A stretch of DNA of 55,334 nt from Nymphon striatum (GCA_016618385.1 JABFOP010000807.1:280216-335549); one strand, 5' to 3'; numbered from the stretch's first letter, positions 2,617-46,365 are shown. The notes: generated from the letters alone by a model not told the origin. Numbers and translations are program-made.

Positions 2617-2898
2617 ATGGTCCTTCGATGTGCATGGGGCATGTGTAATTCGGATATACGATACCCAGAAAAGTTACAAGGAGCCATACTTCATCCTTTT
2701 CCGAAGCCTAAAACACAGCTGAAAAAATGTCTACGATGGATTAAAGCGTGTGGGAGGCCCCACTCTCAGTTAAATGTGAATATAATCAACAAACACAAAG
2801 CTGTTTGTTCAAAGGCAAGTGACAAAATAACAAGATTCTTTCTTTTTTACATGCAACAAAAGTGCCAGCGAAAATATGAATATTTACTGACTAAATAA
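2617..2898 (+). CDS. THAP-like zinc-finger ORF (C-x4-C ... HPFPKP ... W ... AVCS), possible transposon-derived fragment
   Basis: The 93-aa ORF has a THAP-domain-like residue spacing (CAWGMC, LHPFPKPK, CLRWIKAC, AVCSK), but the terminal HF signature is absent. Confidence 0.3.
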   Translation: MVLRCAWGMCNSDIRYPEKLQGAILHPFPKPKTQLKKCLRWIKACGRPHSQLNVNIINKHKAVCSKASDKITRFFLFYMQQKCQRKYEYLLTK

Positions 2899-5332
2899 TC
2901 TTTTACTGGGGGAGGCAGCTCGCTGCTTGTGGGACATGGGCGGTGCTTAACTGCTCCGATCGGAAAGGTGAATTGGCGTACCCACATTTTCAGCCAACTG
3001 AAAAAGGAACAACATTAAGTTTAAATCAGCAACCAATCTACCATTCCATTCTATCACAACCAACATGTTGATGTGCAGTACTGAAGCTGACTTTGTTGAG
3101 TTACTGAAATAGCTAATAAAGATGAGATGCTCTATTCAAAATTTATTCATAAAAATTGATTTAATTTTGTTCATTCTGCGAAAAAGTAAAGCCAAGAATA
3201 CAATTTTGGCCTTTTCAACTTTCAAAGATGTATTACAAATTTTAGCCGAAAGTTGAAGGTTATGAAAATACCTGATTTTAGAAGTTATCACTTACACATA
3301 CAATTAACAAAAAAAGTATATTATCAGCATTGATACGATGATAGTGAGAACATTTAAAATGATGAAACATACCATTATATGATGATGTATTACGCGTATT
3401 TGTCAGCATAATTTGATGAACTAATATAATTTTAATAAAATTTCAGTTTCCTTCGGCCATTTAACTATTTTAACATTGGTTCGACAGATGGCAGCACGTT
3501 CCGCTGATCCTCAGCTGATCCATCAACCAAACCAACCATCTAGTATTCTTGTTGTGGAGAAAATACCTGATAGTTTTATAATGTTTTCTTCTTGTGATTT
3601 TAAACAATTTGTTGTGCCTCTGAAGTGAATACTATATTGTCATGAAGTTTGCTGTTTGAGAAACTCAGTATGATATTTATTGTCTTTAAGGAATTCATTT
3701 CTATCGTGTCCTTCTAATGTTGTTCTTTTTTTTTTCATTTCTGCGAAAAAGCATGATCCAATTTTCAAATTAGAAATATGTGCTGCGTTAGTTATATAAC
3801 CTTGGACATTTTGTCACCATTTAAATGCACCAGTTAAATCACCGTTTAGTTGACGAAGAAGTTAATTAACTTTAAAATTAAAGATAATGTAATAAATAAC
3901 TGTGATTTTGATCAAGAATTGTATTATATGCCAATAATCAATATGTTAAGTTCATCAGTTATAAATGTTTAGCTGAATTGTCAGTCCTGAATCAGTTTAC
4001 CGTCTGAGTTGTTATGGAGGCAACTACATTTTTGTCACTTTTAAATAATTATTTGCCTTAATATCCCAGATAACTTCTTTAAATAGCTTGTAGCATCTCT
4101 TTGTTATTGTATTCATGTTCATAATTGTGAGTCAAATAATGTGATCTCAAAGAAAACATGCATTCAAGGTAATTCTCAAGATTTGAGTACTTTTTTGTTT
4201 CCACATTTTTTAATATTCTAAAACTCAATTTTATGAATCTAAAGTCAAATCTATACCTACCGAAGACCAAGCCCAACAATGGGACTTAGTATTATTTAAC
4301 ATATTGAAACAAAATATGCAATCATTCATTATTCATGAGACACACAAGTCGCGCTTGACCGCAAAGCGTACACCGTGAAACAAATCATCGTTTCTCCCGA
4401 AAATTATCGCAGGCGATGATATTTAGCAATACTGTTCATTAACTATTCCAGTTAATTCCTGTGTGTCAAATTTCATTCCAATCCGATCACTGGTTCTCAA
4501 AAAATCAATTCTTGAATGTCAGATGGTGAAAGTTGGACATAAATGTTTGTAGTGACTTAGAGGGCTAGGGGACAAACATTTTTGCAGCAACCTTAGAGGG
4601 TCACATTTTGACGATGTTTTGACACTCCTGAGATGTGTGGCGCAATCCGCCATTTTTAATTGCGCCCCTCGGCATTGGTTGCCAAAGGGAAATGGCCACC
4701 TAAGAGTGCTCAGTAACATTCAAGGCACATTTAATCCAGGTCTGATTTAATCGTAGATTCAATCGATGCTCATCTGCATTAACCTATCTTTGGAATACAT
4801 ATAATTTTGAAACTTCTAAATGTGAATCACACACTCTCAATAATTACAATGAATAATATTATATCTTCAAAAGTCTCTTTTTTATCTACACTTTTCTTAT
4901 GATACGTGTTTCAAAACACCTTTCTTCTATGATTTGCAATGTTTAATTTACATGAATCTTATTTTTCCTTAAACAGTTATTTATACCCTAACCTTCTTTG
5001 AGATATAGGTATCAAATGTTCAGGTAAAAGTAGCTGGTACTGATGTAGCTCAAGATAAGTGTATGATTTATTTCATCTTTTTCAGTCTTGTGTTAAAGGC
5101 AAGGTTAGAGTTTTCCATGATAACAGCAAATATTATTTCAGCGAGCCTTCTCTTAAATAGACAAAATCCCCTATTTAAACTAAGTTTTTCTTCCTTTGTT
5201 AGTTCTATTCTATTAACTTGAGTTATTTTGAACTTACGTAATTTGAACTGTTTTTATAATCGGAAATTAAAAATAGTATAATATCACCTTTTGCTCATAT
5301 TTGTTTATTTTCCAAATTTTAGTTTATTAGAA

Positions 5333-5418
5333 ATGGCGAAAGGCGAAGATGAATTGCCTGACAAATCTGCTGCAGGTGATTTCTATGCAAAGTATGAACC
5401 AAAGGAAGTACTTGGAAT
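5333..5418 (+). CDS. PHKG: PHKG homolog coding exon 1 (MAKGEDELPDKSAAGDFYAKYEPKEVLG, donor AT|gtgagt)
   Basis: The ATG-initiated frame resembles the vertebrate PHKG N-terminus (..DFYxxYEPKEiLG). A canonical GTGAGT donor follows at 5419. The phase fits exon 2. Confidence 0.8.
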
Positions 5419-5486
5419 GTGAGTAGCTGCCATTTTGATTGTTTTTGTGTGTGTATGAACTTCATTTATTATTATTTCTGTTGCAG

Positions 5487-5653
5487 AGGTGTTAGCAGTA
5501 CTGTTAGGCGATGTATAGAAAAAGATACTGGTTTAGAATATGCTGTAAAGATTATTGATCTCACACAAGACTCGGGAAATCCAGAAACCATTCGTAGAGA
5601 AACACTTTCAGAAATTAGCATCCTGCGATCTGTTGCTGGACATCCTTACATAG
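5487..5653 (+). CDS. PHKG: PHKG exon 2 (Gly-loop GVSSTVRRC, VAIK-like AVKIID, helix C ETLSEISILRSVAGHPYI)
   Basis: It starts at a ttgcag acceptor and ends at a gtaaat donor. Strong protein-kinase subdomain I-III similarity to phosphorylase kinase gamma. Confidence 0.9.
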
Positions 5654-6249
5654 GTAAATATCTACCTCTCAAATATTTTGATAATTAATGGAAGTTTTGA
5701 TTGGTTTTCTTTTTTAATTTTTTTACTACATCTAAAGCCAAAACACGATTTTTAAGTTTTTATTTTTATTACTTATTAAATCAATGTAAAGCATCACCAA
5801 ACATGACATTTATGATTGAAAAATTTGGAGCAAACAGTTGTCATCAATGAGCGTAAGCAAACAATGCAGGGATCCAGGAAGATGCGTTGAGCATTCTCAG
5901 AGAATAAAAGCTATTTTATTAATTTCAAAACACATGCACTCTATTGGAGGACAGTGGGTTCAGCGGTTTAACGATAAAAAGCAAAATTGTTTGAATGGAA
6001 AGATGGTTTTTTGATCTGTCCGAGAATGTGAAAACATAGTTCGATTTGGCTGTTTTTTTGCACAGGGTGCGAAAGACTATTGAACTTCATTTGTGTGAAG
6101 TTTCATTCCGATTGGTTCAGACTTAGTTTAAAAAATCAATGAAAATGTTAGCCTCTGATTCTGGCCCATATATGTCCTTTGCGACTCCAAAGGGTTAATA
6201 AGATCAAGTTTCAGTTATGCTGTTGTGTTCATTCTATTTTTGAAATCGA

Positions 6250-6545
6250 GAGTTGCGGTGGCTGAGTGGTTAAGATCATTATTCTGGGCCTGAAGAACCC
6301 AGGTTCGAATCTGATTCGAACCCCGCCACTTTTTTCACCGTTTACATTGTGTATTCTCGTACTCTCCTCTCTGATATTAGATGTAAGCTGATGTTAGAGA
6401 GAAAATACTCCATCCCTCGGATAGGACGTTAAATGGAGGTCCCGTGTAAAGGAGAGCCATACCCTCTACACGTTAAAGAACCCACTTCACTATTCGAACA
6501 AGAGTAGGGTGACAATTCCCGGTAAAGTGATACACTTGCATTACA
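6250..6545 (+). mobile_element. tRNA-derived SINE copy (tRNA-like head with a GGTTCGAATC box-B element, then a conserved body)
   Basis: The head carries GGTTCGAATC. The body is shared with copies at 8745-9175, 17095-17230, 44315-44765 and 54545-54775. Confidence 0.7.
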
Positions 6546-6731
6546 TAAAAAACAGATGTCTATCACAAGCGTCTATGCTAATGACATTGTCATGAGCAGT
6601 GGACTAGATAGATCCCCTTTTTGTCAGGAATAAAAATAAAAAAATAGAAAATAAAATAGAAATTTTCATATGCCTGAATTAAATTTGTTGATTAAGTTAA
6701 TGTTAACATATATTTATTCTAAATTTTGCAG

Positions 6732-6786
6732 TTTCTCTTCATGATGTTTACGAATCTGAGACATTCATCTTTTTAGTTTTTGAACT
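6732..6786 (+). CDS. PHKG: PHKG exon 3 (VSLHDVYESETFIFLVFEL)
   Basis: It starts at a ttttgcag acceptor and ends at a gtaaag donor. It matches PHKG IQLKDTYETNTFFFLVFDL. The phase is consistent with exon 2. Confidence 0.85.
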
Positions 6787-6865
6787 GTAAAGTATTCTAC
6801 GATTATATATTATCTTTTTTTCAACTTCGTTTGAAGTGTTTAATTGATATAATTTGCATTTATAG

Positions 6866-6931
6866 ATGCAAAAATGGAGAATTATTTGATTACTTGACAA
6901 CTGTCGTGACTTTTTCAGAGAAAAGAACCAG
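6866..6931 (+). CDS. PHKG: PHKG exon 4 ([22 protein letters not shown])
   Basis: It starts at a tttatag acceptor and ends at a gtaata donor. It matches [22 protein letters not shown]. Confidence 0.88.
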
Positions 6932-7001
6932 GTAATATTTTTCTCAAACTTACTTTGTGAATATCGGCATGTCTAACTGTTATTATGATTTCTATCAATA
7001 G

Positions 7002-7074
7002 AATAATTATGAAGCAATTGTTTGAAGTAATTACGTACATCCATCAAAAGAATATTGTACACAGAGATATTAAG
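7002..7074 (+). CDS. PHKG: PHKG exon 5 (RIIMKQLFEVITYIHQKNIVHRDIK, catalytic loop)
   Basis: It starts at a tcaatag acceptor and ends at a gtgaat donor. It carries the HRDIK catalytic-loop motif. Confidence 0.9.
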
Positions 7075-7150
7075 GTGAATAATGTTTATAGACAATAATT
7101 ATAATGAAAATTTTGTATTGTCATAGTTTAAATCAATTTTTATCTTTCAG

Positions 7151-7241
7151 CCTGAGAACATTCTTCTTGATGATAGCTATAATGTCAAAGTTACTGATTT
7201 TGGATTTGCCAAAGTCTTGCATGAAGATGAAAAACTTATTG
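7151..7241 (+). CDS. PHKG: PHKG exon 6 (PENILLDDSYNVKVTDFGFAKVLHEDEKLI)
   Basis: It starts at a tttcag acceptor and ends at a gtgaga donor. It carries the PEN and DFG motifs. Confidence 0.9.
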
Positions 7242-7680
7242 GTGAGAAGCAAAGTTAAAATTTTGATTATTATCATTATAGAGAGGATCTCATTCAGATT
7301 CAAATTTATCAATCATCATATCATTCAATTTTATTCAAATGTATCTATTTATCATGGATGTTGAAAACGGATACAGGTACCAAACCATTTATGTGGCTAC
7401 CAGAAATCTGAAAAAGTCAGAAAAAAAGATGTGATTGTTACCTTGTTAGTTTTGAATTTGCTGCACTCTCTCAGTCTGACTGCTGTAGCACCATCTGTCG
7501 GTTGTGCAATAAACAGAATATAAAATGTGTGCCCGTTGCTTATAACATATATGGAAGCAACGAGCAAGCACTAATTCCATATCCTCTATTTATTGCATTC
7601 AGTCAGATTGATATAGCCTCCAGCTTGCCATAAGCCCATGTGAATTTAGTGCAATATATATTAAAAAATATGAAATATTT

Positions 7681-8734
7681 GAAATATATATATGTTACGG
7701 TTGATGTAATAAATCCGGTTATTATGAATAATGTCCAAATAAACCGGTTAAAGTGAATAATTAATAAGAATGTGTTACTTGAACCGGTCATTATTAATAA
7801 TTGCCAACTATGATCGGTAAATGTGATTAAAGTAAGGAAATAATGAAAAATTTATTACTTGAACCGGTTATTATTAATAATTGCTAACTATGAACGGTAA
7901 ATGTGATTAAAGTGATTATTGAAAAAATTCAAGCAGCTCGACGCTCTGCTAAACAATCACCAAATAAGCAAGCTGAAAAAATGTTACGGCTTTCAAAGCT
8001 TAAATTTCCAGGTGCGATTATAGGTGAAATCGTTCTGATAAGAATTCCAGATAAAAATTCCAGAACTTCTGTGGCACTTAGAATTACAGAGGATTTTTGC
8101 CTTTTTACAGTCGTAGCGATTTGACTATGTAATCAATTGTACAAATGCAATATTGATATCCTTGACCACATAAATTAGAATGCATGCGTTCACATTCTCT
8201 TACTCTTAGACTTATTTCAATATCTGGAACTTCATTAAGTGAAATAAGAGTTTCCTTGCAGACGGTAATTTTGTTTCTTATGTAGAGTTGCTTTAAAATG
8301 TTACATTTTCAATATAAATTATATCAGCTATAATATTCCGATTATCAGCTTTAGCCCTATCTACATCTGGAATTCTTATCCGAACGATTTCACCTATAAT
8401 CGCACCTGGAAATTTAAGCTTCGAAAGCCGTAACATTTTTTCAGCTTGCTTATTTGGTGATTGTTTAGCAGAGCGTCGAGCTGCTTGAATTTTTTCAATA
8501 ATCACTTTAATCACATTTACCGTTCATAGTTAGCAATTATTAATAATAACCGGTTCAAGTAATAAATTTTTCATTATTTCCTTACTTTAATCACATTTAC
8601 CGATCATAGTTGGCAATTATTAATAATGACCGGTTCAAGTAACACATTCTTATTAATTATTCACTTTAACCGGTTTATTTGGACATTATTCATAATAACC
8701 GGATTTATTACATCAACCGTAACATATATTGCTT
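7681..8734. mobile_element. Foldback / long-palindrome element in PHKG intron 6 (about 375-bp near-identical inverted arms, about 290-bp unique centre)
   Basis: Arm 7687-8062 is the reverse complement of arm 8353-8728 with very few mismatches. Identical six-frame ORFs on opposite strands (7903-8124 + and 8293-8514 -) are artefacts of the palindrome. Each arm has a duplicated internal 55-bp subrepeat. Confidence 0.85.
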
Positions 8735-8744
8735 TGTTCATTTC

Positions 8745-9175
8745 TAGTCGTGGAGGCAGTGTCATTCCGACTTCTCTGTTGGAGCTACAAGCCATGGCGG
8801 ACAAATTCTATTTCCCACACAGCATACCTCGCTGTTGCTTTACTTCACCGGGACCTTCCATCCTACTCTTATTCGAATAGTGAAGTATGTTGTTTAATGT
8901 GCAGAAGGTGTGACTCTCCTCTACATGGGACCCCCATTAACGTCATATCTATTAACCTTATTGCACTAAACTCACATGGGTTTATGGCAAACTAGAGGCC
9001 ATGTAAATCAGACTTCTCTGTTACAGCTACAAGCCAATGCGGGCAAATTCTATTTCTCACACAGCGTACCTTGCAGGTGCTCCAATTCACCAGAATCTTC
9101 CACTCTACTCTTATTCGAATAGTGAAGTGTGTTCTTTAATGTGCAGAGGGTGCGACTCTCCTCTAGAAATTACTC
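8745..9175 (-). mobile_element. Two tandem copies of the SINE body in minus orientation, directly abutting the foldback
   Basis: The unit (ctacaagccatggcggacaaattctatttc ... ctcttattcgaatagtgaag ... tgcagagggtg) occurs twice (8745-8998 and 8999-9175). It is the reverse complement of the body at 6360-6530. Confidence 0.7.
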
Positions 9176-9842
9176 ATATTAGTTTTTATTTATTGAATTA
9201 AAAGAGAGAAAAAATGATGTCATACACCCTTTAATGCCAATTGAAGCAATTTTTAAAGATGTTTTTTAATTCTGAATAGAGTACTAAAAGTTATGAGTTT
9301 TATGTTGTCATGCATGTTTCTATACGAGAGGACAAAATCTAGGCAAAAAAATAAGTAAATTTTTTTTTCTTAAATCATTTCGCCTTTATAGCCTTTTTCT
9401 ATGGCTGTTAGGCTAAAGGCTGTGTCAATCTACCTGAATACAGTGCTTTTCTATCAAAATTACAAGCCTTGTTATGCGAATATTATTTTTCACTCTATAA
9501 CCACAATTTAAGTGTGTTTCTCGGGTACTCCACTTCATCAGAATATTACTCTATTCTTCATAAAAGATTAAGTGAGTTCTGTAACAGGCCGAGATTATGT
9601 TTTTTCACTTTGCAGGGGGAACCTTCATTTACATCATATTTGGGGGGAAGCTTAAATAAACAAACATAAAAGGTAAACAAAAAAAGTGGAGGGATGAAAT
9701 GAGATTCAAACTTGGGTCTGTCCAGCCCAAAAAGAAGATATTGTACAACTTACTTATTAACAAACCTTGAAAGATAATTTGAAATATATATCAAATTCAG
9801 ATATGTATTTTATTTGATAAAAGGTTTATTTCTTTTTTCCAG

Positions 9843-9933
9843 AGTTATGTGGCACACCTGGCTACTTGGCTCCAGAGTTACTTAAAGTCTCAATGTATGA
9901 TGATGTACCTGGGTATGGAATAGAAATTGATAT
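9843..9933 (+). CDS. PHKG: PHKG exon 7 ([30 protein letters not shown])
   Basis: It starts at a ttttttccag acceptor and ends at a gtaagt donor. It carries the activation-segment GTPGYLAPE motif. Confidence 0.9.
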
Positions 9934-10797
9934 GTAAGTGTTAAAATTTAGATCATCTTTATCACTAGATCAATATTTCTAGTCATATGGTGAGCCGATT
10001 TACCATTTAATTTTATACATAAAATGTTTAATGCAGCAGTAATTTGTTCATCAAAAGTTATACCAGTAAAGAAAAATCCATTTTTATGAAAATGCAGAAA
10101 AGACAAATGCAGCCTTTTATTATCTGTTTTAAAATACATTTAAAAGGGTTGAAAAAGCTGCATCAGGGGAATGTTACCCCAAAATTAAGAGTAACATAGT
10201 TTCCTTTAGAATATTTTGATGTTGGGACTTTGAATAATATTGCCTGAGCTGTGATCATAGACTTGGTATCACTCTATTATTGAGCACATCAAATTATGAA
10301 ATGGTACCACTTTTTCATATGATTGCAACATCATTTTTTGTCATTATGTGAACTTCAGATGAATTCTGAAATTTTAGTTTTAATATGAAAAATTATGCCA
10401 AAATGTTGACAATGAGTGCAGAAAAACACTTGATGCAAATTTTTAAAAATTATATTAAGGTAGGAAAGCCTTTTTACGGGTCTATGGATTGATCGGCACT
10501 GATTCAGTGGAAGGACAGTGAATTCTCAATGAATTTTAATCTTTTTCAATTGGACAATACTTACATTGTGTTTAAAAATACTTATCACAAAATTTCAAGA
10601 TCTTTGAATGCTATTTTTGAATCATTCATTCTAAATTTATCTCAACATTTTGTTTTAACTTTATTATACTTATCAGCTGTAATTTATAAATTAAGTTTGT
10701 AACTATAAGCTTATATTTTGGAGCATACATATTTGATACGGTTGATATAATTTTGCTATAATCAGAAGTGATTTTTATTCGATTATTTTTTAATCGG

Positions 10798-13306: not shown

Positions 13307-13348
13307 CAAGAGAAAAAGCATGTTTTTAATGCCAGAAAAATATTCAAG
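13307..13348 (+). CDS. PHKG: PHKG exon 11 (QEKKHVFNARKIFK)
   Basis: It starts at a tttttttacag acceptor and ends at a gtttgt donor. It corresponds to the FSPRGKFKV region. Short exon with weaker similarity. Confidence 0.6.
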
Positions 13349-14046: not shown

Positions 14047-15689
14047 TATTCTACATTATGGCGACCTTCAAGTTAAGCTCTATTCTCAATAATTAGTTCC
14101 TCCAATAAATGTTTACTAATGAAATAATGAAGCATTTTGAAGTTTTTATGCAAATATCAGTTTGAAATTTAGAAGAAGAAAAAGTGGCTCAATGTCATGT
14201 CAAAAATATACTCATGAGAGCCATGTTATTGTTTTAATACTACTCAAAAATTATTTCAAATTTAGGTTATCTTCTTTGTCAATTAACAATGTTATCATGT
14301 AATGATGTAATCCTTGAAAATCCCCAACTAGCTGCTCAGTAGTATCTTTTAAAATTATTGTAGATAAATTTTGTATGTTGAAATCAAACATACATTGTTT
14401 AAATTACCAGTTATAGCGCAACATAGGTGCAGGTCACTAGTTGTGGAAAGTAATTCAGTCATTGTATCACAACTAGCTGAAGAAAGAAGAAATGGGAGAC
14501 CTTTGACAAATGAAAATGATCTGTGTTTATTTTGCAATAACACAAGGCTTATATGCACAAGGGACAAGAGAAATTTGAAAGGTATGTGAATAGAAGAACC
14601 ACAGGTGAAGAGAAGGATTAATCTCTGGCACATTTTTACTGTCCATTCCACCACTGCCACCATGTAACGAATGTACGTGGGACCATTAATAAAGAGATAG
14701 ATAACTAACTACCTCTTACCTCTGACAGGAATCGAACCCGCACCTCCCAGCTTGCAAGTCAGGTATGCTACCATAATACTACAGAGGTAAACAGTGTGTA
14801 CCATCATATTCAGATCTGTACTCTCACATTACACCACTGTAGGGAAAAGCTTTACCAAGGTGAGAAAGAAGAGGAAATTGAAGTCGTCATTGTTACAGGA
14901 CTCCACACCACAGTGATAACGTCCAGTAAAGCCGGCTCAAGTCAAACAGTGCAAATGTAATTGCAGGTGCCGAAGCTGATTGTGAGGATGAAACTGGTCT
15001 TGAGGATGAAGTTAGGTCATAAGTGAGAGTTTCCTGTGAGAAGTTGTATCAAACATTACATCTGGATGATGTCACAGTTAAACCATAGCGCTATTCCTAT
15101 ATCCAAATGTATTACACAGCTGTATTTTCAATTAAACTCTCTCTTGCCTGTAGAATTTCAAACCGTCAATATGTAGTCCCTCATTCAATATCTTACATTC
15201 CTCGTCCTAATAACCGAACCTCGATCAAGTAGCTCATTCATCAAATTTATAAAACCAAACATGCTACAATTGGCAACCCTGGCGTGATGTTTGCCACAAA
15301 GTTGACCTGTGAGAGTCTGTAACCATTTGGAACAAAGCTAGAAGAATGTGGAATTTGTAGGCAGACAGACAGCAACCAGCTAGAAAGTTTTCTTTGACAG
15401 GAATGGCATTATCCATGTCCGATTTCACAGGGTCTACAGTGTGAACGTACGTGGGACAGGATCATTTATCCTACAATGAATTTATTTTCCAATACAATAC
15501 AAGACGCGATAGACGAGATATTTAATCAATATGCAAATGAAACCTAGGGTGAGTTGCTATACAAATCAGAATATTCAATTTTATTCAAATAAATAGGGTC
15601 ACCAGTTGTAGCGCAATGTAGGTGCAGGTCACTCTAGTTCCACTAGTTGTGGAAAGTGACTCAGCCATTGTAGCAATGACTAGCTTAAA

Positions 15690-16736: not shown

Positions 16737-16853
16737 TTTGGTATCTTATGTGTCCGATGTCTTGTAAGATTGAAAAGACTTAAGTGTACTCCTGAACCAA
16801 TATCTATGGATGTAGTAATGACAGATCCATACCATATAAAGCCATTAAGAAAG
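16737..16853 (+). CDS. PHKG: PHKG exon 12 (FGILCVRCLVRLKRLKCTPEPISMDVVMTDPYHIKPLRK, CaM-binding region)
   Basis: It starts at a ccactcactag acceptor and ends at a gtttgt donor. It aligns to [39 protein letters not shown]. Confidence 0.8.
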
Positions 16854-17094
16854 GTTTGTATTCATCTAAAATGTTCCTAATTATAGTTGATGATGACAAT
16901 ACAAAATTTAAGAGTATATTTGTAATATGATCAGTAGTAAAAGTGAAATATGATGTCAAGCTTACGAGGTCAGTTAGTCATCTGTTGTAGAAGGTGGGGT
17001 TCATTATGGCAACTGTTTGGAAAGAAAAAAAAATGATAGAATAACTAATTCAAAGACAAAATTGTTCTGATTATCACTTATTAATATATAGTTT

Positions 17095-17345
17095 TTTTTT
17101 TACTCTTCTTGAAATAGTGAAATGGGTTCTTTAACGTGCAGAGGGTGTGACTAACCTCTACACTCTTCACTCCATTGACGTCCTTTCCGAGAGACAGAGT
17201 ATTGTCTTATCTGAACCAGCCTGCATCTGATTCAAAAGAGGAAGGCACGATAATACACAACGTTAAGGAAGAATAACAAATGGGAGGTTTGAGCGAGATT
17301 CGAACCTGTATCAATCAAACCCCACCCAGCACACAAACATGAGTC
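17095..17345 (-). mobile_element. SINE body fragment plus a tRNA-like 3' remnant, minus orientation
   Basis: It carries tcttgaaatagtgaaatgggttctttaacgtgcagagggtgtgact. The reverse complement of 17285-17330 shows GGTTCGAATCTCGCTCAAACCTCCC (T-arm and acceptor). Confidence 0.55.
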
Positions 17346-26315: not shown

Positions 26316-26909
26316 TCAGTAGGGTACTGCATCGCCGTAACGTTCAGGGGCCTTTCTAGACCTCTGGGATCGACGAGGACCCTCGTTCAAAGCAACACTT
26401 TCAGCATTGGCTCGGCGTTCGGAGTGGTCCTCAGAATGAGAAAGAGTTGGTAAATTTTCGACTGGCGAGTTGATGAATTCTGGTTCTGTTGAGCCTTGTG
26501 TAATGGGCGAACTTTTAGGCAGAACCAATGAGTCTACTTCATCCTGTAGCTCAACGTCTAGCGTTTCTTTATTTCCGGTAGATGGAGATGGGCAAGGGGC
26601 TAGATCCGATGTTGTGCTCTCACGACCATCGCGATGACGAATGTGAGCGTAGGTCTGGTTAGCATCTAGAAGCATAACTTGGTCACATAATGGATCTTCT
26701 TTTGATCTGACAAAACGCCTTAGTAATACAGGCCCTTCAGATAAGAGCCAGGAGGGCATTGAAGACCCAGTCATTGCACGTCTGGGAAATTTAAATATCC
26801 TTTCATGAGGAGTTTCGTTGGTTGCGAGACATATTAGGGACCGGACTGAATGGAGAGCTCCGGCTAAGACAGATTCCCATTGAGATTCGGGCAGCGATCG
26901 ACTGTGCAA
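26316..26909 (-). pseudogene. Retroelement integrase C-terminal fragment (..NETPHERIF.. GSSMPSWLLSEGPVLLRRFVRSKEDPLCDQVMLLDANQTYAHIRHRDGRESTTSDLAP)
   Basis: The 197-aa ORF matches the conserved integrase tail of LTR/DIRS-type elements. Identical 85-bp direct repeats flank it at 26195-26280 and 26990-27075. Confidence 0.6.
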
Positions 26910-29190: not shown

Positions 29191-29749
29191 CATGGTTAAA
29201 GAGTTACAAGCAGTTTCCTTCGAATTATTTTACGCATTTTGCAATTATTTTTAAACTTTTAATGACTATATTTCATTACAGAATTAAAATAAATAGCAAT
29301 AATGATTATTGACAAATAGGGAGGGAATAAAACATTTTTGTAAATTTTTTAAATCTGTACTTATTTGACCTTTGACCTCTGACCATATCCAGCAGCTGTG
29401 CAACGCAAGACTCACTTTTCTGAATACGTCTTAGTATGATCTATTCAAAAATACCAAGCAGACACGTGGTCATTTTATGCAGATAAATCACCCCTGGATC
29501 TCATATCCAACGGTCACGAATTTTATATTCGGTTTATCACACAACCGACAGATAGCTTCAAAAATTAATTTATAAATTAAAATAGATTTTGAAATTGATT
29601 CAACTTGATACATGCAGTAAAGCTACACAACCACTCACACAGTAACAGGTATAAGGTACATTATAGGGGGACATTATAGGCCCCCGGGCAAAACAGGCAA
29701 AAGTTACAACCAATTATTGTTTGTGAAATGTTTCAGAGTTACAGAAAAA

Positions 29750-30330
29750 AGCAGTCAATCAGTATATTGTAGTTTATCACACAACCTTTGCTTTATTGCA
29801 TGCATTAGGGGGTTGTATATTTCTTGTATTAGGACACGTCCCTATATATATCGTATAAGAACACGTTCTATATTGGTGTCCAATTACAGACACAGGAAGT
29901 CTGAGATTTTGAATATTGCCTACCACGACTTTATTTTCCATTTTTTATACGCTGCTTCTCTAGTTTCACTTATCTAGGCATGGCTCATTTTTGTTTATAT
30001 CGTAATACAGCTTTCTCTCTTTTCTCTTTCTTTTTTTCTTTTTCTCTTCCTCTCTCTATTTCATACTTTCTAACCGAGTTCTCGGATTTCATTAAATGTT
30101 TGAAACTCAATAGCCTACATTTCCCCTTCTTCACAATTTTCTTCTTTTTTTTTTAGCTTGACTGGCACAAAATAAATCATTTACTAAGGCATTAATAAAT
30201 TCATTTTCGAAGCTACCTGTCGGTTGTGCGATAAACAGAATATAAAATTCGTGCCCGTTGCTTATGAGATATATGGAACTCGTAAGCAACGAGCACTCAT
30301 TCCATATCCTCTATATATACACACCTCACG
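29750..30330 (+). repeat. Interspersed repeat, paralog of 44885-46275, with an empty site for the TA-MITE
   Basis: It shares gtttatcacacaacc...ttattgcatgcat...ggttgtatatttcttgtattaggacacgtcc...(TC-rich tract)...cgtgcccgttgcttatgagatatatggaactcg. It lacks the 710-bp insertion seen at 44926-45635. Confidence 0.75.
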
Positions 30331-35962: not shown

Positions 35963-38900
35963 TAGTCCGGCAGCCAAACCCAATTTTAAGGCTTAACCCG
36001 GACTTGAGGTATTAACTTTTTTTGAATGCTGATATTTGTTCATTAGGACCTCTTCATTGAAAAACCAGATGATGCCACTTTGTCACCCTTGAGCAATTTG
36101 AGATAATTAGCATAATTAATAATGGACGCCAAATATTCATATTCCCCTTATGACGCCTGATACATTGCCACAGAAAGTATATAAATTGAATTCTAAACAT
36201 GTTTTCTTATCATTACTGAGTGAAAAGAGACTCTTGATCAATTTGGGATAATTAGCAGAATTCAAAATGGCCGCCAAATAGTCGTATTTTTATTTTGATA
36301 CCTTATACATTGCTATAGACAAGCATGTCAAGCTATATATTGTATTCGAAACATGTTTCATTATTATTACTGGTTTACATGAGACACTAGCTATATTTGT
36401 GATAATTATTAAAATTCAAAATGGCCGCCAAATATTCTTATTTACTCTTTTGATACCATTTAAATTTCTATAGACAAGCATTTCCGGCTGAAAATTATAT
36501 TAACAAGACATTTTATTACAAATGTTCTAAAGAAAATCTGAAGATTTTAATTAATCATATAAGCATAAATTTCTAGTCATCATCCTCGCTGACATCAGTG
36601 GGTCTTGTCATTCAATTTTGACAAGCATGGACCCTTGACAATTGCAAAATATAGTACATGAAAGTCCTGCCATTACATCCACATTTCTTTGAAATGCATG
36701 GTCCTATACTTTCGCAAGAACATTTAATTAAAGTAAGATATCCGAGATATCCTTAGGTGCGAAGGCCACATTGTCAGGAACAGTTATCGTTTGCAAGGTT
36801 CTTTCTTCTTTCTTGAATCCAAATAACTCTGGATCTAAACTGTCGGTATGAGGTCCAGGATTGCTTCCATATGCAGGCTTGTAAGTGGGCACGTTTAACA
36901 TTTTCCTTGAATGACTCATTGGTTGGTGGTAAGAGGTTAAACTTAGGTGTCCCAGTTTTAGTTTGTGCAGTTTTTGAAGCCCATACATCAAGTCTTACTT
37001 GTGACAATGACTCAGAATTAGGATTTCCATAACATACCAAATAAACTTAGTGGCATAAGGCAACACAGCTTCAATGTCAGAGTTAATGTCACCTAGGAGA
37101 TTTGGGTAGATACCAGACTTGGCCACTTTGAGAGCTCTAGTTTTGTCAATCCCATGACACTGAGCCACTGTGTCCCACCCTGATAAATGCATGAGTTGGC
37201 AAGATCATGTTCACATATGGTTTGTATTTCTTCACAGACTCCTGAATGTCAATGACACTACGACCTTTTTGTGGTGCTTCCATGTACATTCTGCTATTTA
37301 AGTTTAGTAAGTTGTAAAAGTTAAGTAGCAATACAAAGATATCAGTATCATCTGCTTCAACTTCAACTGACAGGTTACTTTCTGCTAACATCATTGCCTG
37401 TTGTACAGTCAGCTTCTTCATGTGATGTAGCAATGCAATGCCTCGTAACTACTTCTTTGTGAATCTCAACAGGAATTCCATCTTGGCTTGTTATAACTTG
37501 CTTTTCCTCTTGTGTGACTGCTCGTGGAATGATTTGTCACTTATTAGATGACTACCGATTAACCCAATCAGTTGCTTATTGTTTCCATCAACATTTAGGC
37601 TGACTTCTTTTGCTGGCAATTCAGAGTTTATCGTTGTGAGGTAGTGAATTTTACCAACACCAGAAGCTCTCCCACTTCGTGCTGCACTCTTTGTACTAAA
37701 GTTGAGATACCTATAAAATATTAGATACACATCACCATGTCTCAGTCTCCATTCAATAAGGCTCTTGAATCCAGCGCTTAAATCTGCTACTGTGCCCTTT
37801 GTTGGCCAGTTAGGAATCCAGATAAATGCTGATCCATCTATCACAGTAGCATCTATTAGAATAGTCCTAACAGATGTTTCCACTTGTAACCTCTTCAACT
37901 TCGCTCTATCTGTCATGAATCTTATAGCTCCTGAATCATTGAACATTGAAGTGGGCACAGGAGCCAGTTCATATGAAAAGAGGTCCTGAAGATTAAAATT
38001 ACGTGCACTCGCCTGAACACCAATTATTCTTGAATAAATCAATTCAATATCAAAGAGACGATCAGAGCCAACTGGAACATGTTTCTTCAATGTAACTAAG
38101 GTTTCAATCTTTTTATGAATAGTCCCATGAAATCCATTTGGCTAACTCTTTTCAAAGTTCTTGATTTCCCTTTCATCAATTTTCACAGACTCATGAGCAT
38201 TCACTGACGGAATGCAACCTGGCCAGTAACTACGTTAACTATTTCAGGTGGATGTTCATCTAGATTCAGTAGATCAAAACATAAGGAAATCTTCCTCCTT
38301 AAGTTATCTCTGTCTCTGCCATCTGAGTGAATGCTGGTATTGGACTCTTCATTTCAGTACTGCTCATTTGTCTTTCCTTCTGTAAGATTAGATACACCAT
38401 TTTCCAACTGGCTGCAGATGTGTAAGCTCAAAGCCCACATCTTCAGTGTGTTTGGTTTCAGTGTTACACCAATGATCACACTTTGACCTTTCCCGTAGCG
38501 CATAAATGTTGCCTCTATGAATTGATCACTCCAAATACTGTTCCAAATGCCGTCTCTGTCTCCATGCATTTCATAGAAATGTGGATGTAATGGCAGGACT
38601 TTCATGTACTATATTTTACAATTGTCAAGGGTCCATGCTTGTCAAAATTGAATGACAAGACCCACTGATGTTAGCGAAGATGATGATTAGAAATTTATGC
38701 TTATGTGATAAACTAAAATCTTCAGGTTTTCTTTAGAACATTTGTAATAAAATGTCTTCTTAATATAATTTTCAGCCGGAAATGCTTGTTTATAGAAATT
38801 TAAATGGTATCAAAAGAGTAAATAAGAATATTTGGCGGCCATTTTGAATTTTAATAATTATCACAAATATGGCTAGTGTCTCATTTAAACCAGTAATGAT

Positions 38901-40771: not shown

Positions 40772-41997
40772 ATGACATCATCTTTTCTTAAGATTTCAAA
40801 ACTCAAAATACTACAAAGATATTTGACAAGATCCGTTCATTCACATCTCGTCCAAAATGTCGAATATATTGCCATCATTGTCAATGTCGTCTTCATTTAC
40901 AGTTTCCGTGGCTGTTCTCTAAAAGGAAATCATATTTTAGAATCGTCAGAATCGTCAGAAAAAGCTGATGTTGATCCAAACGCCTTGCATGTTCTTGATG
41001 GAGGAGCACTTTTGCACAAAGTTCGATGGTCCTACCAGCGTCACTTATAGAGAAGTTTGCGATCTTTATGTTAATCACATCAAATCAAAATATGGCATTG
41101 GTACAATTGTATTTGATGGATACATGGATGGACCATCTACTAAAGATCATGAACACGCAAGAAGAAGTCTCAACAAAAGAAGATGTGCAGATGTTCAATG
41201 TGATCTTTCAACAAAGGTCAATTTAAAACAAGATGTTTTTTTTATCGAGCATCACCAACAAATCTCGTTTGATTGACATGTTATCAACTTATTTAATCAA
41301 GTCTGGCAACAAAGTAATCAAATGTGACGAAGATGCAGACACCGAGATTGTTAGATGTGCATTATATGTTACAGAGACTGGAAGAAAAGTTAACGTAGTT
41401 GCAGACGATACAGATGTTGCTCTCTTACTTTTATACCATTGGAGTGAGAGTATGGAAGAAATTACATTTACTTCTGAGAGATCAAAAGCCACCTTTAATA
41501 TCACTTCTTCCTTATTGAAGATACCTGCTCAGATCAAATCATATCTTCTGGTCTTACACGCCTGGACTGGCTGTGACACGACATCTGCAATCCATTCGAA
41601 AGGAAATAATTCATTACTAAGGAAGTTAAAAACTTCTCAACACCTTCAAAGCTTGATGGATATTTTGAGTGACAAAAATGCTGATCAAGTAGAAGTTGGC
41701 GCAGCAGGAATCGAGTTGTTCTTGTACATGTATGGAGGAAATCAGACCTTGACTGAACTACGGTACGCATTTCCTTACTTTCCAGGAAAAAAAAACATTA
41801 GCATCTTGTTTGCAAGCTTAATGCTTGATATGTGCACTAGCAGATTTGTAATTTTTCTTATCTCAATATTCAATAATACTTATTTTTTAGCTACTACAAG
41901 TTTATGGATATGGCAGCTAAAGGTGAGATACTACCAGAAAACCTTCCACCAACAGAGCGAGCAGCAGTTCAACACAGTCTACGGGTCCATCAGCAAG
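40772..41997 (+). CDS. FEN1/XPG-like PIN plus H3TH nuclease-family ORF, second paralog (frameshifts; putative 128-bp intron 41763-41890)
   Basis: Motifs: HVLDGGALLHKVRW, GIGTIVFDGYMDGPSTKDHEH, VVADDTDVALLLLYHW and AWTGCDTTSAIHSKG (H3TH-like). After splicing GTACGC...TTTTTTAG the C-terminus reads ..TELRYYKFMDMAAKGEILPENLPPTERAAVQHSLRVHQQVVV*, which aligns to the minus copy's LPPT tail. Confidence 0.55.
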
Positions 41998-42721
41998 TAG
42001 TGGTATGACAAACGTATACGACGGGCACTCAACACGTATCCTCTATATATTTTGGCTGGTACTCTTCCATACTGATCGGACTAACCCGTCAGGGACGGGA
42101 CCCTCTAGTATACTATGGATTGGAAAACATTATGTTTTTTTTTTTTTTACACCTAATGAGTGGAGTATGCTTTTAACTTTAAGGCTACATTTTGCAATTT
42201 GGGCCTTTTTTAGAGTGATTTGGCCTGGAAAAATTGGGGGGAGGGTCATACTTTTGTTACGTAATTTTTTAGGAAAGGTGTGGTTAAGTGTCCATTTTGG
42301 CGAAAAAAAGCGTTACTTAATTTCTGAATGGCCCCTCATATGCTAAACAAACAATCGCAAACCTATCTATACTACATAGCGGTATTAATTTGTATTGCAG
42401 ATTGGGAAAAAAACAGTTTTGATTATTTCTAAAATACAGCTGCAAATATAGTATATAAAGCAAAAACAAATTCATACATTTTTACATGCTAATTTTAAAA
42501 TTTATATATAGAGGATACGTGATGGGTGCGTCGTATACAGAATATGTATGTGCTCGTAAACATTGCTGTTATTTTCAGCGAGCCTTGGTGAGCTAAAAAT
42601 AAATCAATGTTATAGCGAGTTTCATATATTCTGTATACGACGTAGTCGAGTTTGGTATTCTGTTTATCACATAATCAATGGATAAGTTTGAAAATTAATT
42701 AAAATGAAGTTAAAATAGATT

Positions 42722-43690
42722 CATAAATATTAAGGCCAGGGATATGGTTTTTAAAGCCATTTATTTTTTTATTAAAAAATAAAAACATAACAAACGTTTC
42801 GGCCATCTAGGCCATCATCAGTGAACAAAGATCAAATAAAACAAAATCGTAAAATATCCAACTTTAAAGAATTTTTTTTAAATGATATGCAGAAAGGAAA
42901 GAAAAAAAGAAAAGAATAAATAAAAATTCAGTTTAAGATTGCCAGCGGATAGGAAGAAAGTGTGTCGTTTAGTGAAGGTCGTTTTTTATATATGTGGATG
43001 CTTTCTAAAATTCTGAGTTCAATATCCGACTTAGCAGAACCAATAATTGCAAAATTTGAAAGAGTTATTTGACATTTGCAACTATTGGTATGCTGTCGAA
43101 TACTGCTGTGAGGTGGGTTTGAAAGGGGGTTGTTGGATCGAAAACTCTTACCAGCATGTTCTGCAACTCTCCTGTATAATTGTCTCTTGGTAGTACACCT
43201 GTCTCTTATATTGGTTCTACCAAGAGACAATTATACAGGAGAGTTGCAGAACATGCTGGTAAGAGTTTTCGATCCAACAACCCCCTTTCAAACCCACCTC
43301 ACAGCAGTATTCGACAGCATACCAATAGTTGCAAATGTCAAATAACTCTTTCAAATTTTGCAATTATTGGTTCTGCTAAGTCGGATATTGAACTCAGAAT
43401 TTTAGAAAGCATCCACATATATAAAAAACGACCTTCACTAAACGACACACTTTCTTCCTATCCGCTGGCAATCTTAAACTGAATTTTTATTTATTCTTTT
43501 CTTTTTTTCTTTCCTTTCTGCATATCATTTAAAAAAAAATTCTTTAAAGTTGGATATTTTACGATTTTGTTTTATTTGATCTTTGTTCACTGATGATGGC
43601 CTAGATGGCCGAAACGTTTGTTATGTTTTTATTTTTTAATAAAAAAATAAATGGCTTTAAAAACCATATCCCTGGCCTTAATATTTATAA
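42722..43690. mobile_element. Perfect palindrome (about 480-bp arms, about 20-bp spacer at 43196-43216) formed by head-to-head Penelope-like element 3' ends
   Basis: 42722-43195 is the reverse complement of 43217-43690. Each arm encodes an identical 100-aa GIY-YIG ORF (42928-43230 - and 43180-43482 +: YIGSTKRQLYRRVAEHAG ... SSIRQH ... ILESIHIYKKRPSLN). Confidence 0.85.
43180..43482 (+). CDS. Penelope-like element GIY-YIG endonuclease domain ORF (one of the two inverted copies)
   Basis: It carries the YIG.T.R.L..R..EH ... S.I..H ... LE..HI.....LN signature. The mirror copy lies at 42928-43230 on the minus strand. Confidence 0.7.
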   Translation: MSLGSTPVSYIGSTKRQLYRRVAEHAGKSFRSNNPLSNPPHSSIRQHTNSCKCQITLSNFAIIGSAKSDIELRILESIHIYKKRPSLNDTLSSYPLAILN

Positions 43691-43794
43691 TTCGACTGGT
43701 GTCTACCAGAAATATCTCCATTCACTAAAATAGATTCAATTTAAATGAAAGTGTAAAATGTTTTAGCATAAAATAACACATTTCTTCCCCAGGC

Positions 43795-44100: not shown

Positions 44101-44314
44101 AAACTTTTTTGGTATATCTTTTTATTATGTTTTATTAATTGTGTATACATTTTTTATACATTTTATGTATATGTATGGCTAGCCTATGTAAGCCAATTTT
44201 TATCTTGAATTATAAAAAAAAAAGTAAAAAAAGAAGCAAATTGATGGATGCATCATCATTATTTAACAAAATTTTAAATCGTTTATCATACATTTACCAC
44301 TTTTTAACCTACCA

Positions 44315-44765
44315 CTTTTCTGTTAGAACTACAAGCCATGGTGGGCGAGTCCTATTTCTCACACCGCAGTCAAGAATAGGCGTTCCTCGCAGGTGCTACA
44401 CTCCACCGGGATCACCCTATTCTTATCACCCTACATAACCCTACCACTTTTTCACCCTTTACGTTGTGTATTCTCGTGCTCTCCTCTCTGATACTGGATG
44501 CAGGCTGGTTTTAGAGAGAAAATATTCCAGTCCCTCGGATAGGACGTTAAGTGGAGGTCCCGTGCAAAGGAGAGTCATGCCCTCTGCACGTTAAATAACA
44601 CACTTCACTATTCGAATAAAGAGTAGGGTGATCCCGGTGGAGTGTAGCACCTGCGAGGAACGCCTATTCTTGACTGCGGTGTGAGAAATAGGACTCGCCC
44701 ACCATGGCTTGTAGTTCTAACAGAAAAGCACTGCATTCAGTCGGATGGAAACGGCCTCCAGCTTG
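44315..44765. mobile_element. Head-to-head SINE pair forming an about 450-bp quasi-palindrome
   Basis: 44320-44420 is the reverse complement of 44625-44725. The central 44440-44620 is the SINE body in plus orientation. Confidence 0.65.
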
Positions 44766-44884
44766 CCATAAACCCATGCGAGTTTAGTGCAATAAGGTTT
44801 TAAAAAAAAAAAAAAAACAAAACAAAAAAATCGTTTAATCTGGTATGGACACTATGTCTAGAGTATACTCCTATAATATATACT

Positions 44885-46275
44885 AATAGGCTTTATCACA
44901 CAACCTTGGCGTTATTGCATGCATAGAGTACCAAAGTGTGACGTCACTTTTCAGGCCTGGACCGCAAACTATTTTCAGCCCAGCTATTTTCCCATAGGAG
45001 ATTTTTGCTTAATCTTTCTTTCGTTATTTTCACCGAAATTTCGCACAGTTTTGTTGGTAAAAGTTTATTTTGGTCATTTGTGATACGAAAATGTGTCATT
45101 TTTATTGATTTTTCATTCGTTGTTTGCGTCGCAGCTTCAAATTATAGATAATTGAGTAGTCCCAGAGACCTGATATATATACAAGCATGGGTCAGTGTTT
45201 CGTGACAACATAAAATCACATAAGAAATTTTACAGAAATAAGAACATAACATTTTTCTATAGAATACTAATTAACCACAATGAAAAAACATGTAATTAAT
45301 CATAAATGAGAACAAAAATATATAAAAATAATTCTGACTTTCTGATTGATCAGTCAGGAGCGAAACACTGAGCCATATTAAACGGTCTCTCAACCTACTC
45401 AAGCCGACTCAACTATTAATTTGAAGCTGCGAGGTAAACAACGAATGAAAAAAGCAATATAATGTCACATTTTCGTATCACAAAGGACCAAAATAAACTT
45501 TTACCAACAAACTGTGCGAAATTTCGGTGAAAATAACGAAAGAAAGATTAAATAAAAATCTCCTATGGGAAAATAGCTGGGGTGAAAATTTTTTGCGGTC
45601 CAGGCTTGAAACGTGACGTCAGCACTTTGGTACTCTATTTGTGGGTTGTATATTTATTGTATTAGGACACGTCCGTATATCGTTATCGTATCGTACACGT
45701 TCTATATTGGTGTCCGATTACAGACACAGGAAGTCTGAGATTTTGAATCTTACCTACCACGAATTTATTTTCCTTTTGTTATATACGCCGCTTACAGAAA
45801 AAGCCGCTTCTCTAGTTTCACTTATCTAGGCGTGACTCACTTTTGTTTATATCGTAACGCATCTTTCTCTCTTTCTCTCTTTCTCTCTTTCTCTCTTTTC
45901 TTTTCTCTTCTTTTTTTTCTTCTTCTTCTCTTCCTCTCTCTATTTCATACTTTCTAACCGAGTTCTCGGATTTCATTAAATGTTTGAAACTCAATAGCCT
46001 ACATATTTCCTTTTCTTCACAATTTAATTTTTTTTTTTTTTTTTAGCTTGACTGGCACAAAATGAATCAATTTTAAAATCTATTTTAATGAATAAATTCA
46101 TTTTTGAAGCTACCTGTAGGTTGTGCGATAAACAGAATATAAAATTCGTGCCCGTTGCTTATGAGATATATGGAACTCGCCAACTTAGTTTTAATTTCAG
46201 CTCGCCAAGAAATGACAAAGTTGACTTGTTCCATATATCTCGTAAGCAACGAGCACTCATTCCATATCCTCTATT
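44885..46275 (+). repeat. Interspersed repeat (paralog of 29750-30330) containing a nested TA-flanked MITE and a long (TC)n-rich tract
   Basis: It is collinear with 29750-30330 apart from the insertion at 44926-45635 and one about 50-bp indel near 46185. Confidence 0.75.
44926..45635. mobile_element. Tc1/mariner-like (Stowaway-type) MITE with about 230-bp near-perfect TIRs and TA target-site duplication (TSD)
   Basis: TA occurs at 44924-44925 and 45636-45637. The termini gagtaccaaagtgtgacgtcac are inverted. The paralogous site at 29795 is empty (gcatgcaTAggggg). Confidence 0.75.
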
Positions 46276-46365
46276 TATCATACTTTACGTAAACTTTAAT
46301 AAAAGTTGTGTGTACAGGCACCTCTGGACTGCTCAGCATTTTTCCTTTAGAATTTAAAGCTATAC

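Follow-up and report, generated by a model that had tools for sequence, protein, structure and literature searches.

A palindromic element in an intron of the phosphorylase-kinase gamma gene of the sea spider Nymphon striatum is probably a non-autonomous Ginger2 transposon

A near-perfect palindrome of about 1 kb is located in an intron of the phosphorylase-kinase gamma gene (PHKG) of Nymphon striatum, within a stretch of 55,334 nucleotides which was analysed as a whole and is referred to here as the window. Its presence raises the question of which type of element it represents and of how its unusually long arms were formed. In the initial annotation it was regarded as an inserted, anonymous element of the Foldback/MITE type. 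An inserted, non-autonomous transposon with terminal inverted repeats (TIRs) and foldback shape is retained in the present analysis, while the anonymous identity is replaced by a name: with a probability of about 0.88, the palindrome is a non-autonomous DNA transposon of the Ginger2 group, which was inserted into intron 6 of PHKG. It is named from its termini, its 4-bp duplication of TATA, its RTATAY target and a remnant of the transposase gene.

A repeat search of the window recovered the inverted repeat at the annotated place, with arms (7688-8052 and 8365-8729) of 365 nt which are 99% complementary and separated by 312 nt. Only two mismatched positions (7995/8422 and 8036/8381) were found in a local alignment of the arms. 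The arms are long, as annotated, their length being 365 nt rather than the 375 bp given before. The 5 nt at the outer end of each arm belong to a self-complementary (AT)n flank and lie outside the element, so the element proper (7693-8724, 1,032 bp, ends TGTTACGG...CCGTAACA) consists of a left arm (7693-8052, plus strand), a unique centre of 312 nt (8053-8364) and a right arm (8365-8724, minus strand). Aligned to each other, these arms of 360 nt each match at 358 of 360 positions. A divergence of 0.56% fits recent formation or gene conversion, both of which had already been considered for the near-identical arms. Over the 55-kb window, there are exactly two occurrences of the 25-nt terminal sequence, one on each strand (0 expected, 100 shuffles). 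No further copy of the element was found in the 55-kb window with BLAST, and no other Ginger2 sequence was found in the whole window by tblastn with full-length transposases. The RNA fold of the 1,032 nt consists of one uninterrupted stem of ~360 bp (MFE -650 kcal/mol).

The exons in the window are about 90-100% identical, exon by exon, to the N. striatum phosphorylase-kinase gamma protein, which assigns the window to this species or to a very close relative, and the location in intron 6 is confirmed. Counted by the coding exons which can be seen in the window, the host intron (7242-9842) is the sixth, and 40% of it is filled by the element. The coding exon upstream of the element (7151-7241, plus strand, PENILLDDSYNVKVTDFGFAKVLHEDEKLI) encodes PENILLDD...DFGFAKVLHEDEKLI and is followed by the donor GT at 7242, while the downstream coding exon is found at 9843-9934 on the plus strand. 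The element was correctly placed downstream of a coding exon; its distance from the exon end at 7241 is 452 nt and not 440 nt.

On both sides, the element is flanked by copies of a SINE-like repeat of ~290 nt, of which at least five other copies or fragments are present in the window (6420-6528, 17101-17162, 44314-44368, 44538-44807 and 54506-54749). The left flank (7594-7692, plus strand) comprises repeat sequence at 7594-7673 and an AT-rich tail at 7674-7692, which contains the insertion target. The repeat portion, previously described as a SINE leader fragment, is in fact the 3' end of a plus-strand copy. To the right, the element abuts two head-to-tail copies (8729-9165, minus strand, about 8729-8925 and 8926-9165, cores 84% identical), as had been noted before, and these are oriented opposite to the left fragment. 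The orientation of the repeat is fixed by the copy at 44520-44830, which carries an A-rich tail at the end matching GCAATAAGGT. A tRNA-like head was not found in the flanking repeat by ARAGORN, nor was a Pol III-type head found in the SINE-like repeat, for which Rfam yielded only a chance-level match on 7300-9500. Lacking a tRNA-like head, the repeat is called SINE-like as a description, derived from the A-rich tail and the interspersed copies. Of the proposed insertion into a pre-existing SINE, the tail of a SINE-like copy as target is retained, whereas the splitting of one copy is not. Judged from the arrangement of the flanks, the element landed in an AT-rich tail between tail-to-tail SINE-like copies, in agreement with the RTATAY preference of Ginger2.

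Ginger2 transposons move by cut-and-paste, using a transposase of the H2C2 + DDE type (Bao, Kapitonov & Jurka 2010, PMC2836005). They are characterised by termini of the form TGTNR, target duplications of 4 bp (TDD-4/-5: 5 bp), RTATAY as the preferred target and TIRs of about 45-180 bp in metazoan families and 260-297 bp in TDD-4/-5 (PMC2836005). The element in the window and its flanks read ...AATATATATA/TGTTACGGTTGATG......CATCAACCGTAACA/TATATTGC (slashes mark element ends here and below). It starts with TGTTA at 7693 and terminates with TAACA at 8724, as in TGTNR...YNACA, and TATA is present on both sides (7689-7692 and 8725-8728), giving TATA/TGTTACGG...CCGTAACA/TATA. With an A preceding the left and a T following the right duplication, the target is rebuilt as A-TATA-T. 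The flank is (TA)n-like, however, and a duplication taken by itself would match at 2 to 6 bp. Because the duplication in the window alone is weak evidence for this reason, relatives from a beetle (Onthophagus taurus, L002), an aphid (L003) and a moth (L001) were fetched for a comparison of the ends, and the element boundary was set by the homologous termini of the beetle and aphid elements.

The beetle locus harbours a complete element of 2,360 bp (5158-7517) with a TATA duplication (G-TATA/TGTTACGGTTA...TAACCGTAACA/TATA-T), the left flank of which is not a simple repeat. Together with its flanks (GGGGTGTATA/TGTTACGGTTACTG...CTCTAACCGTAACA/TATATACAGG), only the 4-bp TATA duplication fits. A 6-bp ATATAT duplication with GTTACGG tips was considered for the element in the window and discarded, since the beetle flanks allow 4 bp only. 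In the aphid, an element of 2,996 bp (4207-7202) has TGTTACGGTCAATGA at both ends (TGTTACGGT tips) and is flanked by TATA and TGTA. The moth copy is truncated, and its 3' end reads ...ACCGTAACA/TATAC (also written ...CCACATTTACCGTAACA/TATAC). The terminal TGTTACGGT is identical across all four species, i.e. sea spider, beetle, aphid and moth. The ends of the element in the window are 84% identical to the beetle 3' end over 45 nt, and over 35 nt, 7848-7882 matches beetle positions 5242-5276 at 89% identity, with shared orientation and a similar distance from the tip; overall, identities of the subterminal blocks between window and beetle are 85-89%. RTATAY is represented by A-TATA-T in the window, G-TATA-T in the beetle and ..TATA-C in the moth, three sites which stand for consistency and not for statistics. 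A simple scan revealed no TIR pair around a scorpion homologue in L004. The beetle element thus has in common with the element in the window the near-identical terminal 11 nt (TGTTACGGTTA/G), the TATA duplication, CCGGT-containing subterminal motifs and a C-terminal transposase domain of 56% identity. It differs in its length of 2,360 bp, in encoding a transposase, and in its short imperfect TIRs without any foldback.

The transposase gene has left a decayed remnant in the element (8065-8497, minus strand), which covers the last ~145 codons with the C-terminal Cys-rich domain and begins in the right arm, from where it is continued on the minus strand of the unique centre. It carries two frameshifts and two in-frame stops, and in the alignment the last ~5 codons are absent. 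With three frames joined, the minus-strand translation is IIEKIQAARRSAKQSPNKQAEKMLRLSKLKFPGAIIGEIVRIRIPDVDRAKADNRNII...LKQLYIRN...CKE...GQGYQYCIC...CKKAKILCNSKCHRSS. The coding-derived part of the left arm (7920-8052, plus strand) is an inverted copy of 8365-8497 and reads inward as EKIQAARRSAKQSPNKQAEKMLRLSKLKFPGAIIGEIVLIRIPD. While the element had been described as devoid of an ORF, a 73-aa ORF starts in each arm (7903-8124 on the plus strand and 8293-8514 on the minus strand), and both are remnants of the transposase gene. The 73-aa arm ORF gave no match to Pfam, even at E ≤10; the family was recognised after the three reading frames had been joined by hand and used in a protein database search (5.8 billion proteins). 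The best homologue (P0001, E 1.3e-43) shares 58% identity over 97% of the fragment, and PDVDR, LR, QG and CNSKCH are invariant columns in the alignment of the remnant. A tblastn search with the beetle transposase matched 8514-8065 at E 1.9e-20 and 7861-8052 at E 4.8e-8, and the beetle protein encoded in the complete element (P0029) is 56% identical to the remnant.

Full-length homologues comprise 540-625 aa and carry Integrase_H2C2 and rve upstream of the domain preserved in the remnant. The beetle transposase is encoded in two overlapping ORFs (5480-5941 and 5905-7215) with Integrase_H2C2 (PF17921), rve (PF00665) and the C-terminal Cys-rich domain. PF17921 and PF00665 are likewise found in the proteins P0126 and P0132. 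The H2C2 and rve domains, which in Ginger2 are unaccompanied by reverse transcriptase or other LTR or Polinton genes, are present in the relatives only, the copy in the window retaining the C-terminal domain alone. A domain profile built from the homologues retrieves 222 proteins and 4,471 cluster representatives, and many of the 222 are named KRAB-A domain-containing protein 2-like, SCAN domain-containing protein 3-like or Integrase catalytic domain-containing. Llorens et al. (2012, PMC3575427) assign the integrases of KRBA2 and SCAND3 to the GINGER2 clade, and the putative link of the remnant to Ginger2 runs via these database names (KRBA2-like, SCAND3-like) and that study. KRBA2 and SCAND3/ZBED9, which are domesticated mammalian Ginger2 integrases, resemble the remnant in their integrase lineage and in lending their names to its database relatives. 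They are single-copy host genes without transposon ends, though, whereas the copy in the window is a dead transposon fragment.

The outer part of each arm is a non-coding terminal region (7693-7919, plus strand, with its mirror image at 8498-8724). Six NCGGTNA motifs are arranged in it in one orientation (7715, 7744, 7784, 7814, 7864 and 7894) at a spacing of 29-50 nt, compared to 0.12 expected per 227-nt region from the rest of the window. Similar motifs (ACCGGTTATTATTAATAAT and CGGTAAATGTGATTAA) are found in the beetle and moth ends, CGGTAAATGTGATTAA being shared with the moth end. The six motifs are probable transposase-binding sites. Internal subrepeats of 55 bp, as annotated earlier, were not recovered; each arm instead contains these six motifs and one duplication with a period of 80 bp (7759-7833/7839-7913, 88% identity in the repeat search). 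Three tiny arrays only were reported by TRF, and larger tandem arrays are absent from the arms.

The composition of the arms bears on their origin. On the minus strand, the terminal region (8724-8498) is followed by the codons 'EKIQ...IRIPD' (8497-8365), the codons 'VDRAKAD...CNSKCHRSS' (8364-8065), a near-repeat (8037-8064), the reverse complement of the first codon block (8052-7920) and again the terminal region (7919-7693). Each arm therefore contains the same ~133 nt of coding sequence, directed from its end towards the centre, which argues that the long arms are secondary and not the native layout. A protein model of N. striatum (P0012) covers the same segment at 80% identity and indicates that the family is represented in the N. 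striatum genome by at least one further copy. It runs 3-4 residues further upstream (...NEVSEKIQAARR), in register with the beetle transposase (...NTVSQKILEARN), at a place where the window carries subterminal repeat sequence. This upstream continuation points to ~7919/7920 as an internal-deletion junction. The inner junction of the left arm (8037-8064) consists of a 13-nt near-tandem repeat (GATAAGAATTCCA/GATAAAAATTCCA; TRF period 13, 2.2 copies).

A plausible course of events would start with an autonomous ancestor of ~2.4-3 kb, in which an internal deletion joined the ~227-bp terminal region to the last ~145 transposase codons (near 7919/7920, mirrored at 8497/8498). In repair or replication, a nascent strand would then have changed templates close to the ORF end, in a short homologous stretch represented today by the 13-nt near-repeat, and the first 360 bp would have been copied backwards, replacing the original other end and yielding two identical ends. 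Such backward copying would give arms ~2-7 times longer than the published metazoan Ginger2 TIRs of 50-180 bp, with coding sequence pointing inward. We infer that the 13-nt near-repeat is the footprint of the template switch that made the inverted copy; alternatively, it could be a pre-existing short inverted repeat or the result of slippage after the event. Both rearrangements, their order and their mechanism, are reconstructed from one copy and are to be read as a proposal. At the mismatch 8036/8381, the conserved Arg of 'VRIRIPD' is changed to Leu in the left arm only; this single site would fit the right arm as template. The arm divergence of 0.56%, as opposed to the decay of the central ORF, could mean either that an old dead copy was duplicated recently or that the arms have undergone gene conversion. 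Devoid of its own transposase, the derivative would depend for its movement on a Ginger2 transposase acting in trans, binding to the termini and the six NCGGTNA motifs, cutting at TGTTA/TAACA and integrating with a 4-bp stagger at RTATAY.

Among the competing explanations, arms of this length might be native to a Ginger2 family of sea spiders, as in TDD-4/-5, with no secondary inverted duplication at all. Ginger2 TIRs range from 45 to 297 bp (PMC2836005), and the outer ~227 nt of non-coding sequence, which would fall inside this range, could be the normal TIR of the family; the arm length of 360 nt is outside of it, the range being descriptive rather than defining. A native origin is nevertheless very improbable: the inner ~133 nt are transposase codons running inward from both ends, which is impossible for a single gene, P0012 shows how the native sequence goes on upstream of the junction, and the TIRs of the beetle and aphid relatives are imperfect and only 11-120 nt long. 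A different superfamily, known or unknown, is conceivable as well, with a Foldback-type element or MITE in which the protein similarity is incidental; the long arms, the subterminal repeats, the lack of an intact ORF and the size of ~1 kb would suit it. Elements of comparable shape are Tc7 of C. elegans, which has two ~345-bp arms and tips matching Tc1, and FB of Drosophila and Galileo, all of which resemble the element in the window in their long near-identical arms, short unique centre, lack of a transposase and presumed mobilisation in trans via shared tips. They belong to unrelated superfamilies with other duplication lengths, however (2 bp in Tc1/mariner, 9 bp in the MuDR-like FB and 7-8 bp in the P-type Galileo), and the arms of FB are arrays of short tandem repeats. 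In the window, the duplication is 4 bp and not 9 bp, and the arms are not composed of short-tandem-repeat arrays, TRF having returned its three tiny arrays only. MITEs are usually shorter than 800 bp, non-coding and high in copy number, with TIRs and a target duplication; the latter two are present here, yet the element comprises 1,032 bp, has kept coding-derived sequence and is found as one copy in the window. The terminal 45 nt and the subterminal blocks are homologous to a transposase-encoding beetle element, and the internal sequence matches the beetle-type transposase (E 1e-20 to 1e-43). Taken with the 4-bp duplication and the composition of the arms, these homologies make an origin from another superfamily highly improbable. 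Ginger1 was discarded because it targets CCGG/CCGT and carries GPY/F and protease domains (PMC2836005).

The palindrome might also have been generated during sequencing or assembly, by chimeric or foldback long reads or by a collapsed inverted duplication. The genome is a draft of modest quality from 40 pooled individuals (PMC12220506), and a second near-perfect palindrome in the window (42718-43693) could be taken as a further sign of such errors. For the 1-kb foldback, however, the limits of the repeat agree, base for base, with conserved transposon termini bordered by a 4-bp duplication, the flanks constitute one intron between correctly ordered exons collinear with the protein, the asymmetric centre of 312 nt continues the ORF of one arm, and the arms differ at 2 positions. 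Foldback reads with a missing adapter give palindromes which are free of a spacer and run to the read ends, in contrast to the 312-nt spacer observed here. An assembly artefact is thus very unlikely. The second palindrome, with arms of 334 + 165 nt and a centre of 17 nt, contains two head-to-head ORFs with near-identical products of 100 aa, which, inspected by eye, we take to be GIY-YIG/Penelope-like; it is probably biological, too.

The reading as a non-autonomous Ginger2 transposon also conforms to the described Ginger2/Tdd elements, including the non-autonomous Ginger2-1N1_NV, with which the element shares TGTNR termini, the 4-bp duplication and the RTATAY target (PMC2836005). They agree further in that autonomous relatives encode an H2C2 + DDE transposase and that short non-autonomous derivatives exist. 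Dissimilar are the arms, at 360 nt compared to 45-180 nt in metazoan elements and 260-297 nt in TDD-4/-5, as well as the inverted coding sequence within them and the retention of the C-terminal third of the transposase gene. At the level of sequence, the element agrees with Ginger2 in all features applicable to a non-autonomous copy, the arm length being the sole departure.

Public gene models treat a segment of the left arm (7934-8023, plus strand, 90 nt, AARRSAKQSPNKQAEKMLRLSKLKFPGAII) as a cassette exon that keeps the reading frame, with AG at 7932-7933 and GT at 8024-8025. The insert of 30 aa is present in two protein models of the 335,549-bp contig (P0250 and P0367; KAG1656042.1 and KAG1656043.1), where it is placed between ...EDEKLI and ELCGTPGY, and tblastn maps it to the left arm. 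Three models of a 663,484-bp contig (P0247-P0249) are without the insert and otherwise identical. As 40 individuals were pooled for the assembly, the two PHKG contigs may be alleles. The insertion may be polymorphic, with the element carried by the 335-kb contig and missing from its allelic counterpart of 663 kb, or coding statistics resembling those of a transposase may have deceived a gene finder on one contig. A genuine PHKG exon, functional and alternatively spliced, that was exapted from part of the element would be compatible with the Ginger2 identity and draws on the two public isoforms that include 7934-8023, the canonical AG/GT splice sites, the length of 90 nt and the preserved reading phase. 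It is considered unlikely, because the transposase-like coding statistics of the exon can mislead gene finders, the kinase would be interrupted by 30 residues after DFG and before APE, a duplex of 360 bp encloses both splice sites, and the three isoforms on the other contig are without the exon. Given the position between DFG and APE and the splice sites hidden in the duplex, we are inclined to regard the exon as an artefact of annotation or as an aberrant, minor isoform. The host pre-mRNA would carry a hairpin of ~360 bp and a cryptic in-frame exon.

In its most far-reaching form, the locus would combine a recent, still polymorphic insertion with a real 30-residue cassette in the activation segment and a hairpin feeding dsRNA pathways (editing or small RNAs). 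This combination is unlikely; if true, a live DNA-transposon foldback would be making a new exon and a source of dsRNA in a conserved metabolic kinase. For a polymorphic insertion, the empty site would read ...GAAATATATATA-TTGCTTTG... with a single TATA. The insert in the activation segment of KAG1656042.1 and KAG1656043.1 derives from a transposon arm and is suspect until supported by transcripts.

We know of no report of the Ginger2 group from a sea spider, based on a non-exhaustive check. A known element type, the non-autonomous Ginger2 transposon, would be encountered in a new host, with a foldback structure which is unusual but explicable. The main use of the result is in annotation, since an unclassified palindrome of 1 kb is assigned to a defined superfamily. 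The element would also serve as an example of how a cut-and-paste transposon gains very long identical ends by backward copying of one end. From insects to a sea spider, Ginger2 has kept its TGTTACGGT tip and its TATA duplication and, if the two PHKG contigs are alleles differing by the insertion, Ginger2 would have been recently active in pycnogonids.

Two public N. striatum isoforms of the phosphorylase-kinase gamma gene PHKG from the 335,549-bp contig (KAG1656042.1 and KAG1656043.1) include window 7934-8023 (+) as an in-frame exon. This 90-nt exon, with canonical AG/GT splice sites, is part of the left arm of the Ginger2 foldback transposon, and its 30 amino acids are placed between the DFG and APE motifs of PHKG. 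Three PHKG isoforms from a 663,484-bp contig do not contain the insert and are otherwise identical. The presence or absence of the exon could be a haplotig insertion polymorphism or an annotation artefact. Another PHKG intron, flanked by exons 13307-13348 and 16737-16856 in the exon map, harbors a tRNA-Ala(TGC) gene predicted by ARAGORN (14716-14789, minus strand), oriented opposite to PHKG.

A SINE-like interspersed repeat, roughly 290 nt long and carrying an A-rich tail, is clearest at 44520-44830, and copies are located at 6420-6528, 7594-7673, 8729-9165, 17101-17162, 44314-44368, 44538-44807 and 54506-54749. No tRNA-, 5S- or 7SL-like head was found in this repeat by Rfam and ARAGORN. The stretch 8729-9165 comprises two copies arranged head-to-tail, with no A-tail separating them. 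Directly to the left of the SINE-like fragment at 7594-7673 lies another short interspersed repeat (7495-7593, 29508-29553, 30217-30318 and 46114-46278), the copies of which are 85-90% identical.

Besides the Ginger2 foldback, the window contains a second near-perfect palindrome (42718-43693), formed by arms of 334 nt (42863-43196/43214-43547, 99%) around a centre of only 17 nt and by a further arm pair of 165 nt (42718-42882/43529-43693, 98%). It is made up of two head-to-head 100-aa ORFs (42928-43230, minus strand, and 43180-43482, plus strand) with near-identical products, which, judged by eye, we take to resemble the GIY-YIG endonuclease of Penelope-like elements. Further transposon-type ORFs are found at 2617-2898 (+), 26316-26909 (-), 37146-38090 (-) and 40968-42000 (+); one of the four is THAP-like (CAWGMCNS...), one covers the C-terminal tail of an integrase from an LTR retrotransposon, and two are mutually related and oppositely oriented. 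Of the window sequence downstream of PHKG, about half has the appearance of transposon debris.

Reverse-transcriptase-like ORFs of the retroelement type truncate the Ginger2 copy of the moth Scirpophaga incertulas (L001 10001-11330) on the 5' side. This copy carries frameshifts in its C-terminal domain, yet its database label is 'hypothetical protein'. The 9-nt tip TGTTACGGT is identical in the Ginger2-like elements of beetle (L002 5158-7517), aphid (L003 4207-7202), moth (L001 ~11330) and sea spider, as are the TATA-type flanks. The Ginger2-like proteins of these species share only about 40-58% identity. The putative cleavage and binding site of these elements is unusually strongly conserved.
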